This document shows, piece by piece, positions 2,104 through 12,802 of a stretch of DNA of 64,000 nucleotides. The notes beneath the pieces are model-generated. The model saw only the letters and a list, made by a program, of their open reading frames with translations, did not search any database and had not been told where the DNA came from. Both the position numbers and the translations under genes were made by a program. Position 1 is the first letter of the stretch. Each line of letters begins with the position of its first letter. This stretch comes from Desulfuromonadales bacterium (GTDB lineage Bacteria; Desulfobacterota; Desulfuromonadia; Desulfuromonadales; JACZKF01), in the NCBI GenBank assembly GCA_029289095.1, contig JARFUG010000003.1:25479-89478 (forward strand), in the 5' to 3' direction.

Positions 2104-3303
2104 ATGAGTCTTCTCCAATCACCCTTCAACGCTAAAGGTAGGACAATGTCTCTTTCAACTCTCTGGGCCTGGTGCAAAAGACACCTTCTACTGGTAACGT
2201 TTCTCTCCATCGGCCTCATTTTTGTCTTCGCGGTCATCAACGTTCAGATTCTGCACATGACCTCAGAGCCTGAGTTCTGCGCCATGTGCCACCCCAACCA
2301 GGGGTACGGCCCGCTGGCCGAAGTCGATTCCTGGGCGCACTCGACCCATGCCGCCGCAGGCGTCTCTTGCCTGGACTGCCATGGCCGTCCCGGTCTGGCC
2401 GGCTACATGAGAGCCAAGATTGGCGGGCTCTACGATGTCTATATGCAGTTCACCCTTTCGGCTGAAGAGAAACTTGCCATTCTGTCCAATCCGTCGCCCG
2501 ACCTCGTTCCGGAAGACCACTGTCTCTACTGTCATTCCGATGAGCAGAACCTGGCGACCCGGCAGGCCACCCGCTTCATCGACCTCGTCAACATGCGCAT
2601 GCTCGACAGCGTGCAGAACCCCGAGTTCCGGGAGCGCAAAGGGATTCCTGATATTCTGGCCGGCCCCACCCGGGAGAACTCGCGCTTCGATCACACATTC
2701 CATATGGACACTTTCGAACTTTCGTGCAACGACTGTCACTTCGGTGTCGTGCACAACCCCCAGAGCAAAACCGACCTCATGAACATGTGCATCGCCTGTC
2801 ATGATGCATACGAAGGCTCGTCTGCTCCGCTTCTGAACGATTGCACCTCGTGCCATTCGGTCCAGAACTCGATGTACCTGGGCCAGGGCGCCCGCGGGGT
2901 TCCCGAGGAAGAGGGACTCAAGTCGATGTTCGGCATAAGCTGCGACATGTGTCACTCTTCGGTGTTCAAGGGCGTCTACCGTCCTTCGGCCGGCACCTGC
3001 ACCGATTGCCACGACTCGGGTTACAACGAAATTCTCGAGATGTGGCAGCAGGACACCCGAGAGCAGATCGCCAAACTTGACCGCCTTCGTCTTACCGTCG
3101 AAGACGCCCTGCGTGATGGTGATGCCCGCAACCGCGACAACACTGCTCGCTGGGAACTCTTCCAGAAGGCCGTCTACAATCTGAAACTGGTGAAGAAAGA
3201 TGGCGCGAAGGGAGCCCACAACGCCGACTACGCTTTGTCCATCCTTTCCTCGGTCGAGAAGGACTTCAACTTCATCCTCAACGACATCAGAATCAACTGG
3301 TAA
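2104..3303 (+). CDS. membrane-anchored octaheme c-type cytochrome (NapC/NirT-like N-terminus)
   Basis: Eight CXXCH motifs (CAMCH, CLDCH, CLYCH, CNDCH, CIACH, CTSCH, CDMCH, CTDCH) and one N-terminal TM helix. The alternative start at 2146 has the better SD. Confidence 0.8.
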   Translation: MSLLQSPFNAKGRTMSLSTLWAWCKRHLLLVTFLSIGLIFVFAVINVQILHMTSEPEFCAMCHPNQGYGPLAEVDSWAHSTHAAAGVSCLDCHGRPGLAGYMRAKIGGLYDVYMQFTLSAEEKLAILSNPSPDLVPEDHCLYCHSDEQNLATRQATRFIDLVNMRMLDSVQNPEFRERKGIPDILAGPTRENSRFDHTFHMDTFELSCNDCHFGVVHNPQSKTDLMNMCIACHDAYEGSSAPLLNDCTSCHSVQNSMYLGQGARGVPEEEGLKSMFGISCDMCHSSVFKGVYRPSAGTCTDCHDSGYNEILEMWQQDTREQIAKLDRLRLTVEDALRDGDARNRDNTARWELFQKAVYNLKLVKKDGAKGAHNADYALSILSSVEKDFNFILNDIRINW

Positions 3304-3546: not shown

Positions 3547-3618
3547 GATCTCCTCCGTTATCTAGTAAAGCCGGATCGCTCCGGATCGCCTTTTGACTTA
3601 GTCTCGTGTCCCGCGCTC

Positions 3619-3762: not shown

Positions 3763-3834
3763 GATCTCCTCCGTTATCTGTAAAGCCGGATCGCTCCGGA
3801 TCGTCTTTTTGACTTTGCCTCGAACCCCGCGCCC

Positions 3835-3981
3835 TCAGCCGACCCTGGAAGCCAGGAACGCCAGCGCCGGGTAGGAGATCAGCACCGCCGTGAACACCGA
3901 AATGACTCCGGTGACGACCAGCAATGCAGCCAGATATCCTGATTTCGCCTTTTGACCGATTTTCCCGATAGTTGTTTCCAT
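3835..3981 (-). CDS. small hydrophobic peptide, 48 aa, copy 3: METTIGKIGQKAKSGYLAALLVVTGVISVFTAVLISYPALAFLASRVG
   Basis: This is the C-terminal part of track ORF 3835..4092. The internal ATG at 3981 is preceded by AAGGAGGAAATC. It is the first gene downstream of the sigma-54 promoter. Confidence 0.7.
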   Translation of the reverse strand: METTIGKIGQKAKSGYLAALLVVTGVISVFTAVLISYPALAFLASRVG

Positions 3982-4074
3982 GATTTCCTCCTTTGACTTG
4001 GCGCCTCCGCGGAAGGCGACTTTCTGATATTTTTTCGGTCGACTCTGGCGACCGTGCTTACTTGCCTTACTAAA

Positions 4075-4092
4075 TAGCAACCGCCGTGCCAA
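4075..4092 (-). promoter_or_regulatory. sigma-54 (-24/-12) promoter of the three-peptide array
   Basis: Minus strand reads TTGGCACGGCGGTTGCTA, matching the TGGCAC-N5-TTGCW consensus with correct spacing. It lies about 95 nt upstream of the copy-3 ATG. Confidence 0.8.
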
Positions 4093-4162
4093 TATGATTT
4101 TTCATGCCAAAACGAATACTTACGGCCTACTCACATCCTGGAGAGGCGATTCCAACTAAAAG

Positions 4163-4489
4163 TGTTCAATTCCCGGCATGAAGAAATTCAAGAAAATAAC
4201 CTGCCCTCTGCGACAATCCTTCTCACACCAGAGATGATGTCGTGCTGTCCGCCCCCGAATATGCACTTATCTGGCGTTGCAATGACCTTTTGACTGAGAT
4301 GTCGGCAGAGGCGATGACGTTGCAGGAGGGAATAAGCCCGTTTGGGATGTGTTCAGAATACGGCATGTGGAAAGTGGGACGCCAGATGGTGTTCACTCTA
4401 CTTGCTTGAAATACTGTCGTTTTCTCTTGTTCAAAATCCGACGTGGTGCGCTTGTTTCTTTTTATGGCAACTGTTGCGCACGTTGCAAT
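4163..4489 (-). promoter_or_regulatory. upstream activating region: three 16-mers of form TGTTCA-N-CCGRCR (TGT-N10-RCR) plus GTTGCA motifs and a GCAACTGTTGCGCACGTTGCAAT element
   Basis: 16-mers at 4163-4178, 4350-4365 and 4428-4443; CGTTGCA at 4275, 4318 and 4481. The same motifs occur at the same distances upstream of the second sigma-54 promoter (10073-10401). Confidence 0.55.
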
Positions 4490-4711
4490 TAATGCACTGG
4501 GACTCTCCTCCCAGCTCAGAGGAAAACCGGACGGTCGTTCCCCTGCCTCGCCCCGATGGCGCTCCTGTAAATTGCCATCCACTCTCCCTTGAATTCCTCA
4601 CTTCGCGGCAGCAATAAACCCCGGGAGAATGCATCCGTTCCGTCGGCGCGTTCTCCCGGGGTTTTGATAAAGCCACACCCGAATCCCCTCAAATGAGGGG
4701 ATTCGACTTTT

Positions 4712-9743: not shown

Positions 9744-9890
9744 TCAGCCGACCCTGGAAGCCAGAAAAGCCAGCGCGGGGTAGGAAATCAGAACAGCCGT
9801 AACCACGGACATGACGCCGGTGACGACCAGCAATGCGACGAGATAGCCCGATTTCGCTTTTTGTCCAATTTTCTCGATGGTTGTTTCCAT
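9744..9890 (-). CDS. small hydrophobic peptide, 48 aa, copy 5: METTIEKIGQKAKSGYLVALLVVTGVMSVVTAVLISYPALAFLASRVG
   Basis: Hand translation; SD AAGGAGGAAAGTC precedes the ATG at 9890. It is the first gene after the second sigma-54 promoter. Confidence 0.7.
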   Translation of the reverse strand: METTIEKIGQKAKSGYLVALLVVTGVMSVVTAVLISYPALAFLASRVG

Positions 9891-9985
9891 GACTTTCCTC
9901 CTTTGACTTGGCGCCTCCGCGCGGGAGGCGTCTTCTTATAATCTTTCGGCCCTCTCAAGAGACCGTGCTTGCTTGCCTAACTTAA

Positions 9986-10003: not shown

Positions 10004-10072
10004 ATAAATAGTCACGCGCAAACAGCCACTTAGGTGGCTTGTCCGTCCCATGGAGTCGATTCCGGCGAAAAG

Positions 10073-10401
10073 TGTTCAATTCCCGACGGAAAAAAAAGAA
10101 ATCGAACGGCCGGACCTGCGGCAACCTTCCGCCCCGCAGCAGAGGTAAGGACGAACTGTCCGGCCGCGAACGCCCGTTGGTCGTGGCATGCATTGTTTTT
10201 CCCTGCGTGGGTGAAGAGGCGATTGACGTTGCACGGAGTGGATGCGTCCGCCTGAAATGTGTTCAGAATCCGGCAGGGCAAAATGGAGACGATCAACCAG
10301 AAAGATTACTATCTGATTGATTATTGGTTCTTTTCCCTTGTTCAATATCCGACGCATCGCGTTCTGTTTCCCTTCAGGGCAACTGTTGCGAGCGTTGCAA
10401 T
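10073..10401 (-). promoter_or_regulatory. upstream activating region paralogous to 4163-4489
   Basis: 16-mers at 10073-10088, 10260-10275 and 10339-10354; CGTTGCA at 10227 and 10393; GGCAACTGTTGCGAGCGTTGCAAT at 10378-10401. Distances to the -12 element match locus A within 1-2 bp. Confidence 0.55.
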
Positions 10402-10658
10402 CGAGTTACCAGACCTCAGGCTGTTGCACCTCGTCAGGGCATTCTGCAACAGACCAGATATCTGTCGCTGCCGATTCTCTTTGAAATTGCAGCAGTGAAT
10501 TCCACCTACGTCTTCTGTATCCTGATTCCGACTATTCGAGGCGTACACAAAAAGTGAAAAAATTTTTCCTTTTTTCCGGCTACTCCCTTTGGTATCATTA
10601 ATTTCTGTAACTCACTTAAAGCTGGGGCAATTTCACCCCCGTACGCAGGAGAGTTTCA

Positions 10659-11117
10659 ATGGCGGTTTCCAGCAGCGACCCCATCTTTCCCATCAGCGTG
10701 GCTGCAAAACTCCTCGGAGTTCATCCCCGGACGATCCGCATCTACGAAGACGAAGGCCTGATCAAACCTTCACGTCGAGGCCAGAAAAGATACTTTTCCC
10801 AGGACGACATCCAGTGGATTCAATGCATCAGATATCTCATCCATGAAGAGGGAGTCAGCATTCCCGGCATCAAGAAGCTCCTCAAGCTCAGCCCATGCTG
10901 GGAGATCAAGGTCTGTCCGCCAGAGATTCGCGAAAATTGTTCCGCTTATGTCGACAGAAGCGGGTCGTCACAAAAACCGTGCTGGGAAGTCGCGAATCGG
11001 GCCTGCGCCAAAGACTTCGATCAGTGCGCAACTTGCGATGTTTTCGTGCAGGCGATGAAGGAGAGTCAGTCGTTGCAGGAACGGAGAGAAAAAGAGCCGA
11101 AGATTGGCGCAGACTGA
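10659..11117 (+). CDS. MerR-family transcriptional regulator with C-terminal Cys-rich two-CW-type domain
   Basis: N-terminal MerR HTH (ISVAAKLLGVHPRTIRIYEDEGLIKPSRR). The C-terminus carries PCWEIKVC..C..PCWEVANRAC..CATC, i.e. 8 Cys and two CW dyads. Confidence 0.8.
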   Translation: MAVSSSDPIFPISVAAKLLGVHPRTIRIYEDEGLIKPSRRGQKRYFSQDDIQWIQCIRYLIHEEGVSIPGIKKLLKLSPCWEIKVCPPEIRENCSAYVDRSGSSQKPCWEVANRACAKDFDQCATCDVFVQAMKESQSLQERREKEPKIGAD

Positions 11118-11338: not shown

Positions 11339-12802
11339 GTGAAGGAAGTCGCCAATATTATCAATGCATTCTTCAGAGGAATCACTCACAGCAAGGTCTC
11401 TCTGATCGGGGCGATGGTCGTCACAGTCGTCTTCCCCTTTCTCGTCGGCGCGATCATCTATGACATCTATTTTCACATCGAGAACACCTATTTCGCCGGC
11501 TTCATCTACATGCTTCTCGGCCCTGTGTTTCTCGGAGGACTTCTTCTTGTCTTTCTCGGCCTGTTCTTTTTCAAAGGCAAGGAGGAGGTCAGGCTTTTCA
11601 CCCTCGAATATCTCCAGGACTATTTCACCGATCCGACGAAGTTCTCCAGGCTCCGTCGGATCTTGTTCTTCACAGTCTTTCTCACTTGCGTCAACCTATT
11701 CATTTTCGGCGTCCTCGCCTACAGGGGATACCATTACATGGAGTCGACCGGATTTTGCGGCACTTTCTGCCATACGGTGATGAATCCCGAATACACCGCA
11801 TATCAGAATTCTCCGCACTCCAGGGTGACCTGTGTCGAATGCCACATCGGAGGAGGCGCCGAATGGTTCGTCAAGTCGAAGATCTCCGGAGCCCGCCAGC
11901 TTCTCGCCGTGGCCTTCGACACGCACCCGCGCCCCATAGAGACTCCCGTCCATGGTCTGCGTCCCGCCCGGGACACGTGTCAGCAGTGCCACCGTCCGGA
12001 GAAATTCCATGGAAACCGGCTCGTCATCAAGGAGAGATTTCTTCCGGATGAGCACAACACCAAAACCTTTACCGCCCTGCTGATGAAGATCGGTTCGGCA
12101 GGCGACCACACCACGGGATCTCATGGGATTCACTGGCATGTGGCGCCGGAAAACGAAATCACCTACCAGCACGCAGACTACGGCCGCCAAATTATCCCCA
12201 TCGTGACGATGACCGGAGCCAGCGGCGGAGAGCGTATCTTTCTGAGTTCTGACGCCGACGAAGTCATGGCCGAAGCTGCCGCACGCGGAGGCGGCGTTCG
12301 GGTGATGGACTGCATCGACTGCCACAACCGCCCCTCCCACATTTTCCTGTCGCCGGACCAGGCGATCGACCGCAAGATGCTGGAGGGGGAGATCCCCAAA
12401 GAACTTCCCTTCATCAAGCGCCAAGCCCTGGCGGCGGCAACCCAGCTCTACACCTCGAGTCAGCAGGCCCGCACCGCCATCGCCACGCAATTGCACGACT
12501 GGTACCAGACCAACTACCCGGACCTGGTCAAAAAAGGCTTGGTTGAAAAGGCGATCCGCGGGGTTCAGGCCGCCTATGCTGAAAACGTCTTCCCCGAGAT
12601 GAACATTCAGTGGAACACCTACGTCGACCACATCGCCCACACCCCTGATTTCGATCCGATGATCGGCTGCATCCGCTGCCACAACGATGAGCATGAAACC
12701 GTCACGGGGGAAGTCATTTCCATGGACTGCGATTTGTGCCACACGGTATTGGTCGAAAATGTCAAGGAGATGAACATTCCTGAAATGCTTCGTGGCAGGT
12801 AG
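11339..12802 (+). CDS. membrane-anchored multiheme c-type cytochrome, NapC/NirT-related (ImcH-like architecture)
   Basis: GTG start 8 nt after GGAGG. Three N-terminal TM helices. Five CXXCH motifs (CVECH, CQQCH, CIDCH, CIRCH, CDLCH) plus one CX3CH (CGTFCH). Confidence 0.8.
   Translation: MKEVANIINAFFRGITHSKVSLIGAMVVTVVFPFLVGAIIYDIYFHIENTYFAGFIYMLLGPVFLGGLLLVFLGLFFFKGKEEVRLFTLEYLQDYFTDPTKFSRLRRILFFTVFLTCVNLFIFGVLAYRGYHYMESTGFCGTFCHTVMNPEYTAYQNSPHSRVTCVECHIGGGAEWFVKSKISGARQLLAVAFDTHPRPIETPVHGLRPARDTCQQCHRPEKFHGNRLVIKERFLPDEHNTKTFTALLMKIGSAGDHTTGSHGIHWHVAPENEITYQHADYGRQIIPIVTMTGASGGERIFLSSDADEVMAEAAARGGGVRVMDCIDCHNRPSHIFLSPDQAIDRKMLEGEIPKELPFIKRQALAAATQLYTSSQQARTAIATQLHDWYQTNYPDLVKKGLVEKAIRGVQAAYAENVFPEMNIQWNTYVDHIAHTPDFDPMIGCIRCHNDEHETVTGEVISMDCDLCHTVLVENVKEMNIPEMLRGR

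Follow-up and report, generated by a model that had tools for sequence, protein, structure and literature searches.

Two predicted sigma-54 promoters precede arrays of small membrane-peptide genes beside a CbcL-like cytochrome gene in a Desulfuromonadales genome

In a Desulfuromonadales genome (GenBank assembly GCA_029289095.1), we analyzed a 64,000-nucleotide (nt) stretch of contig JARFUG010000003.1 (positions 25,479 to 89,478 of the forward strand, hereafter the window), in which two predicted sigma-54 (-24/-12) promoters, P1 and P2, lie upstream of two arrays of small-peptide genes. Array 1 consists of three tandem genes (1a, 1b and 1c) and array 2 of two (2a and 2b), all encoding peptides of 47-48 amino acids (aa). 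Along the minus strand, P2 is followed by 2a, 2b, the gene for an enhancer-binding protein (EBP) with a PAS domain (PAS-EBP), a Zn-ribbon protein gene, a CbcL-like cytochrome gene, a gene for a 91-aa protein, the P1 region, 1a-1c and a terminator (Table 1). Each of the five peptide genes is preceded by a GGAGG Shine-Dalgarno sequence, and all five peptides have a short charged N-terminus, a single transmembrane helix and the conserved end ...AVLISYPALAFLASRVG. Between 1a and 2a, 21 of 144 bases (15%) differ; of the codon changes, 15 are synonymous and 4 are non-synonymous. Judged from these sequence features, the five open reading frames (ORFs) are genuine coding genes.

Table 1. Coordinates of the predicted features (numbered from the first letter of the window; distances are to TGGCAC of the promoter in array 1, array 2 and the orthologous locus L001)
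Feature	Position	Strand	Remarks
P1, sigma-54 (-24/-12) promoter, TTGGCACGGCGGTTGCTA	4092-4075	minus	GG 4090-4089, GC 4078-4077
P2, sigma-54 (-24/-12) promoter, TTGGCACGCCGGTTGCTA	10003-9986	minus	GG 10001-10000, GC 9989-9988
P1 upstream (enhancer-like) region	4093-4487	minus	footprint islands, fixed spacing, motif searches
P1 region, TAAGT	4122-4118	minus	distances -31, -30, -31
P1 region, box 3 GGGAATTGAACA	4174-4163	minus	distances -83, -82, -83
P1 region, TGCAAC half-sites	4281 and 4324	minus	
P1 region, box 2 ATTCTGAACAC	4359-4349	minus	distances -268, -267, -269
P1 region, box 1 GGATTTTGAACAA	4439-4427	minus	
P1 region, TGCAACGTGCGCAACAGTTGC	4487-4467	minus	contains palindrome GCAAC-A-GTTGC
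P2 upstream region	10004-10399	minus	same elements at same distances
P2 region, box 3	10084-10073	minus	
P2 region, box 2	10269-10259	minus	
P2 region, box 1 GGATATTGAACAA	10350-10338	minus	
P2 region, TGCAACGCTCGCAACAGTTGC	10399-10379	minus	
GGATNTTGAACAA			distances -348, -348, -350
GCAACAGTTGC			distances -386, -387, -390
Array 1, predicted 5' leader	3982-4065	minus	conserved 5' end GGCAAGNAAGCACGGTC, two hairpins
Array 2, predicted 5' leader	9891-9976	minus	layout as in array 1
Peptide gene 1a	3981-3835	minus	48 aa, METTIGKIGQKAKSGYLAALLVVTGVISVFTAVLISYPALAFLASRVG
Peptide gene 1b	3762-3619	minus	47 aa
Peptide gene 1c	3546-3403	minus	47 aa, identical to public protein P0001
Peptide gene 2a	9890-9744	minus	48 aa, identical to public protein P0004
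Peptide gene 2b	9665-9519	minus	48 aa, no terminator-like hairpin after it
Bidirectional intrinsic terminator	3351-3320		closes array 1 as well as the NapC/NirT-type cytochrome gene convergent with it
PAS-EBP (PAS / AAA+ sigma-54-interaction / Fis-type helix-turn-helix)	9406-8012	minus	464 aa
Sigma-70-like promoter before Zn-ribbon gene	TTGACA 7913-7908, TCTAAT 7890-7885	minus	N17 spacer, conserved
GGAATTTTCGATCA box, GGAWT-N-TGAACA-like	7776-7763	minus	between sigma-70-like promoter and Zn-ribbon gene
Zn-ribbon + helix-turn-helix protein	7726-7061	minus	221 aa, weak IS1/IS1595-transposase-like N-terminal matches
CbcL-like fused multihaem c-type/dihaem b-type cytochrome	7028-5046	minus	660 aa
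91-aa membrane protein	4987-4712	minus	conserved after cytochrome gene
Two hairpins after 91-aa gene	4705-4680 and 4664-4616	minus	
NapC/NirT-type cytochrome gene	2104-3303	plus	convergent with array 1

The first-pass annotation had proposed that two near-identical sigma-54 promoters drive the peptide arrays, and both motifs read on the minus strand as it claimed. The two 18-mers differ at a single spacer base, GG and GC are exactly 10 nt apart in each, and at all non-spacer positions both agree with the Geobacter sulfurreducens RpoN consensus TTGGCACGGTTTTTGCT (PMC2725144). On both strands of the window, TGGCAC-N5-TTGCW matches exactly only at P1 and P2, while 0.02 matches are expected from dinucleotide-preserving shuffles, none of which (0 of 100) gave two matches. 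When two mismatches were allowed, sigma-54-like matches in the window were not in excess (17 versus 22 expected), so that only P1 and P2 stand out. A weaker sigma-54-like site, CGGCACGAACTGTGCT, is present at 8029-8014 within the terminal part of the PAS-EBP gene.

Both promoters are intergenic and have the same orientation as the peptide genes. From the 3' edge of the motif to the first peptide ATG, we measured 94 nt for P1 (ATG at 3981) and 96 nt for P2 (ATG at 9890), in agreement with the earlier figure of about 95 nt. Counted from C(-12), at 4077 and 9988, transcription is predicted to start at about 4065 and 9976, and the leader reported to be shared downstream is indeed shared, the first ~17 nt of the predicted transcripts being nearly identical (GGCAAGTAAGCACGGTC versus GGCAAGCAAGCACGGTC). 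Furthermore, a simple promoter scan of the minus strand found no sigma-70-like -35/-10 pair ahead of array 1 or array 2.

The promoter is also retained, as GTGGCACGGCCGTTGCTAT, in the orthologous locus of another Desulfuromonadales metagenome-assembled genome (MAG; L001/L002), where it precedes a single four-gene peptide array. The distance from the T of TGGCAC to the first ATG is 110 nt in array 1, 112 nt in array 2 and 119 nt in L001. In an alignment of the P1 region, the P2 region and L001, the promoter windows are 0.87-0.93 identical, versus 0.3-0.5 in the flanks. Besides the promoter, conservation islands were found at 4177-4148, 4358-4344, 4447-4418 and 4475-4461, and the box-to-promoter spacing is constant within 1-4 nt across ~390 bp in the three regions. 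This constant phasing through diverged spacers is as predicted for an activator-dependent, looping promoter. Together, the consensus, the orientation, the conservation, the phased boxes, the lack of a sigma-70 site in the scan and the adjacent EBP gene argue that P1 and P2 are functional RpoN-type promoters of the peptide arrays, with a probability that we put at roughly 0.75.

Four further loci (L008, L010, L015 and L016), which serve as outgroups, encode activators orthologous to the PAS-EBP (62-65% identity, with recognition helices that are nearly the same) in a common gene order, namely activator, promoter-like TGGCAC-N5-TTGGAA (L008 5465-5480, L010 5668-5683, L015 1851-1866, L016 2417-2432), small proteins including a member of the peptide family (hmmsearch E-values of 1e-5 to 1e-8), NifX-like protein, Zn-ribbon protein and CbcL-like cytochrome. 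The PAS-EBP, peptide, Zn-ribbon and CbcL-like cytochrome genes recur together in L001, L008, L010, L015 and L016, and P1 and P2 appear to belong to a module that is kept in Desulfuromonadales and includes a menaquinol-side cytochrome.

Two kinds of sequence elements recur in the upstream regions. TGCAAC/GTTGCA, often arranged as inverted repeats, is abundant upstream in the window regions and in the activator-ortholog loci; 7 of its 20 copies in the window fall inside the two 470-bp upstream regions, and L008, L010 and L015 have clusters of it upstream. Since TGCAAC elements stand upstream in every locus with an orthologous activator, they are likely the recognition sites of the helix-turn-helix (HTH) of the PAS-EBP family (recognition helix GVDRTTLWRWMK), of which GCAAC-N-GTTGC is the probable operator. 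The second element, GGAWT-N-TGAACA, occurs in both enhancers and once more at 7776-7763 and nowhere else in the window. These boxes are restricted to the lineage of the window and L001, being absent from the outgroup loci, and are probably the sites of a second factor. We also considered whether the control region is a divergent small gene. The plus-strand ORFs at 4342-4617 and 10283-10498 share just a 20-aa stretch, which derives from a DNA box, are interrupted by 1-nt indels between the paralogous regions and are not conserved as proteins; both are probably spurious. A public assembly (L047) calls the latter ORF as a 71-aa gene overlying the array 2 enhancer.

The PAS-EBP contains sigma-54-interaction (PF00158; 2.6e-59, 200 bits) and HTH_8 (1.3e-07) domains. 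Its GESGTGKE and TLFLDE motifs (Walker A/B) align to ZraR and NifA, which are also its best matches in the PDB, with PspF lower in the list. In its PAS domain, three cysteines, C77, C86 and C90 (C-x8-C-x3-C), are invariant in 5 of 5 aligned PAS-EBP homologues, which suggests a site for redox or metal sensing.

Several observations weigh against the sigma-54 reading. In an alignment with ZraR, NifA and FlrA, the GAFTGA loop of the PAS-EBP (residues ~232-247) reads GGY-GN, with one residue deleted, and the loop of the L001 ortholog, GPD-GD, likewise has one residue deleted. Such deletions typify the sigma-70-dependent homologues TyrR, DhaR and HupR, with which VpsR is grouped (PMC3162934). Because of this degenerate loop, the adjacent PAS-EBP may not be the activator of P1 and P2. 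Neither a second EBP (PF00158) nor an rpoN gene was found within the 64-kb window. The best candidate EBP site, the palindrome, lies ~390 bp upstream, while the usual distance is 80-150 bp. The promoter-like site of the outgroup loci, whose activators have intact loops, has a conserved non-canonical -12 element (GG for GC). Among the distant members of the peptide family, L013 and L014 have sigma-70-like upstream regions and L012 has an ambiguous, non-significant TGGAAC-N5-ATGCA; from this upstream DNA, sigma-54 control is not borne out as a family-wide property. In addition, the secondary structures of the leaders are not significant (z-scores of -0.1 to -1.8; array 1, -1.2).

With regard to the degenerate loop, two options stand side by side: the odd loop may remain functional, or P1 and P2 may now be activated by another factor, with a different role left to the PAS protein. 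According to the second, which we hold as a tentative alternative at somewhat below even odds, P1 and P2 are genuine sigma-54 promoters whose activator is an intact-loop EBP encoded elsewhere in the genome; this EBP could share its HTH with the PAS-EBP as a paralogue, or could recognize the GGAWT-N-TGAACA boxes. The PAS-EBP would now be sigma-54-independent, acting for example at the sigma-70-like promoter of the Zn-ribbon and CbcL-like genes, or would modulate by occupying the upstream activating sequence (UAS). Consistent with this, the AAA+ domain of the window and L001 activators is conserved except in the loop, where they differ (the proteins are 69% identical), and the PAS-EBP resembles TyrR, DhaR, HupR and VpsR in combining an intact PF00158 domain with a defective sigma-54-contact loop (PMC3162934). 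Moreover, L008 encodes a further PAS-EBP, whose loop reads GAYTDA and whose recognition helix is nearly identical, a TTGACA-N17-TCTAAT promoter is conserved ahead of the Zn-ribbon gene, and among the lineage-specific boxes, box 3 lies ~83 nt before TGGCAC, the classical UAS distance. On the other hand, the window shows no further EBP, the EBP gene is tightly linked to the arrays, TGCAAC sites persist upstream, and a natural EBP with three substitutions in the loop (GVATGV) is predicted to be active from its regulon (PMC4641369). The outgroup activator loops read GAYTGS, GAYTGA or GAYTDA, and variants of this kind are regarded as functional (PMC4641369). TyrR, DhaR, HupR and VpsR work at sigma-70 promoters and have no consensus sigma-54 promoters beside them; the EBP gene of the window, in contrast, is flanked by two.

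An alternative of low probability is that the sites bind the sigma-54 holoenzyme unproductively, in complexes that are poised, that compete or that form roadblocks, and that an unrecognized promoter of the sigma-70 family transcribes the arrays. In G. sulfurreducens, where rpoN is essential, some consensus-like promoters are repressed when RpoN is overexpressed (PMC2725144), and the sigma-70-like upstream sequences of the distant family members fit this possibility, but no sigma-70-like pair was found upstream of the arrays, and the joint conservation of promoter, ATG distance and phased boxes is the pattern of activator-dependent promoters. As for mere recent segmental duplication or chance without regulatory meaning, the P1 and P2 regions are clearly paralogous over ~650 bp and the peptide genes, yet this reading is hardly credible and largely refuted by the match statistics, by conservation in discrete islands between flanks that are only 30-50% identical, by the 15%, mostly synonymous divergence of the coding DNA, which makes the duplication old and the identity of the promoters a reflection of selection, and by the ortholog of the other MAG, which retains islands and spacing at 69% EBP identity.

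Under the sigma-54 reading of P1 and P2, each would be the sole recognizable promoter of a polycistronic array of single-pass inner-membrane peptides. The sigma-54 holoenzyme would sit on the promoter as a silent closed complex until an AAA+ EBP bound in the ~400-bp upstream region loops over to form the open complex, and transcription from ~4065 and ~9976 would give on/off, high-amplitude expression of the peptides. Since array 2 is not followed by a terminator, its transcripts are likely to run on into the activator gene, and this would create a feedback loop if the PAS-EBP is the activator. The three-cysteine PAS domain could supply a redox signal, which would fit the linkage to a CbcL-like quinol-side cytochrome, and the peptides would be induced together with a change in the mode of respiratory electron transfer. 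Our best guess, from gene linkage in six loci, is that the peptides are small and abundant and work in the inner membrane as partners of the respiratory machinery. This guess is weakened by the distant family members, which occur in unrelated contexts with sigma-70-like promoters. The fullest version of the scheme we consider unlikely. In it, the EBP with the degenerate loop itself activates both consensus promoters from the phased ~400-bp enhancer, by non-canonical engagement of sigma-54 or in a mixed hexamer with the factor of the GGAWT-N-TGAACA boxes, and the peptides are accessory subunits of a CbcL-type quinol oxidoreductase.

The peptides themselves form an unannotated family. A single-sequence search returned only 4 relatives among 5.8 billion proteins, whereas a profile search uncovered a family with the motif SAVLIAWPALAYLxSKLF, comprising 32 clusters at 50% identity and 825 at 90%. 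All of these clusters are unnamed and without Pfam domains ("hypothetical protein" in public data), and the few that bear an organism label are mostly from Desulfuromonadales. Direct search with the peptides found nothing in JGI metagenomes and one species among GTDB representative genomes. Searches of Pfam, NCBIfam and PDB gave chance-level matches only, and a known family, a pilin, a toxin or a precursor of a ribosomally synthesized and post-translationally modified peptide was thus rejected; for type I toxins in particular, the strong Shine-Dalgarno sequences and the polycistronic layout speak against the assignment. In the outgroup loci, the small-peptide clusters contain, besides the YPAL/WPAL family, membrane peptides of 53 aa that form a separate family (...F(I/L)xWS(F/L)xC(L/A)GG...), absent from the window (L008 6508-6669 and 6901-7062; L015 2479-2640, 2675-2836 and 4437-4598; L010 6761-6922).

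With respect to RNA elements, the second hairpin of the array 1 leader, CGCCTTCCGCGGAGGCG, stands directly before the Shine-Dalgarno sequence. A role of the leaders as riboswitch or attenuator was rejected: the two hairpins recur, but their z-scores are weak and no U-tract follows them. They are possibly stabilizing hairpins. An Rfam scan (E <= 1) of the leaders and control regions gave only sub-threshold chance matches. In the spacers between the peptide genes (3780-3800 and 3560-3585, minus strand), we observed a small stem-loop, CCGGA-GCGA-TCCGG, whose loop is GNRA-like; L001 keeps this hairpin in altered form at 9770-9790, and it may be an element for mRNA processing or stability.

Small membrane proteins under sigma-54 control are known from other bacteria. 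In the psp regulon, PspF-dependent sigma-54 promoters drive the small inner-membrane proteins PspB, PspC, PspD and PspG. The window locus differs from it in that there is no sequence relationship, the EBP has PAS and HTH_8 domains and no pspA-like gene is present. The product of pilA is a short, very hydrophobic, membrane-inserted protein. In G. sulfurreducens, the -24/-12 promoter of pilA was located by 5'-RACE and is activated by an EBP (PMC2725144). The arrays, with their predicted sigma-54 promoters, resemble pilA (RpoN/PilR) in the same bacterial order; unlike pilA, the peptides have no pilin signature, are multi-copy and are linked to cytochromes instead of pilus genes.

The closest precedent, by analogy, is the cbcBA operon of G. 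sulfurreducens (GSU0597-GSU0593), which has a sigma-54 promoter with the activator BccR, is linked to low redox potential, and begins with two hypothetical ORFs (GSU0597 and GSU3489; size unstated) followed by GSU0596, a gene of the RpoN-dependent regulator family (bioRxiv 10.1101/2021.04.15.440034). It encodes an inner-membrane b/c-type quinol-side cytochrome whose on/off expression is tied to respiratory redox potential (same source). The window has a similar architecture, from predicted sigma-54 promoter through two small ORFs and an EBP-family gene to a b/c cytochrome. However, its cytochrome is CbcL-like (fused c and b parts) and apparently under its own sigma-70-like promoter, its regulator has a PAS domain and no receiver domain along with the degenerate GAFTGA loop, and its peptides come in 3 + 2 tandem copies behind two duplicated promoters. 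Unlike the CbcL-like gene of the window, G. sulfurreducens cbcL, described as constitutively expressed (bioRxiv 10.1101/2021.04.15.440034), has no EBP or peptide genes nearby. Given pilA (PMC2725144) and cbcBA (bioRxiv 10.1101/2021.04.15.440034), the statement in the first-pass annotation that sigma-54 dependence is unusual for tiny hydrophobic peptides was overstated, and sigma-54 regulation of this type is well supported but fairly ordinary.

What interest the locus has lies in a peptide family without annotation, an enhancer of 400 bp with rigid spacing, and perfect sigma-54 promoters next to an activator whose GAFTGA loop has decayed, the last of these offering a natural test of GAFTGA strictness or of activator replacement. 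If confirmed, the locus would represent a compact sigma-54 regulon, amenable to experiment, in uncultured Desulfuromonadales and link a CbcL-like cytochrome of the inner membrane with a widespread family of ~48-aa membrane peptides, extending the BccR/cbcBA precedent of Geobacter relatives that re-route respiratory electron flow by sigma-54 switches. For annotation, the locus adds five real peptide genes and two promoters in DNA where public assemblies break, and the publicly called 71-aa gene (10283-10498, plus strand), not conserved as a protein, covers the array 2 enhancer. Two contigs apparently of the same organism (L003 1-277 and L004 1-169) begin inside array 1, 26-134 nt before 1c; evidently, assemblers break at the near-identical tandem peptide genes.

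The 660-aa cytochrome encoded between the arrays shares 60% identity with G. sulfurreducens CbcL (GSU0274; P0090) over 99% of its length. It contains cytochrome c3/c7 domains and a ~40-aa clade-specific extension common to P0006-P0009; its FdnI-like match is very weak and non-significant. The Zn-ribbon/HTH gene lies directly upstream of the CbcL-like gene in all related loci (220-271 aa), and its product is a candidate DNA-binding partner. Downstream, the two hairpins after the 91-aa gene probably end the cytochrome operon ahead of the P1 region.

The NapC/NirT-type cytochrome gene convergent with array 1 adjoins an NrfD/4Fe-4S/cytochrome cluster. Divergent from array 2 are a MerR-family regulator gene (10659-11117, plus strand) and then a gene for a 487-aa NapC/NirT-like cytochrome (11339-12802), neither of which is beside the array in L001. 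A plasmid or mobile origin of the stretch was rejected, as no plasmid match was found and the neighbours are chromosomal (uvrB, cysS, che genes, acyl-CoA dehydrogenase). Sequence matches to the window were obtained in contigs of Desulfuromonadales-like MAGs. The block of EBP, Zn-ribbon and CbcL-like genes lies inside the array in the window and past the convergent NapC-type cytochrome in L001, and L012 is without the EBP. From this arrangement, the block seems to have moved between genomes, and the promoter region seems to have been duplicated in the lineage of the window.

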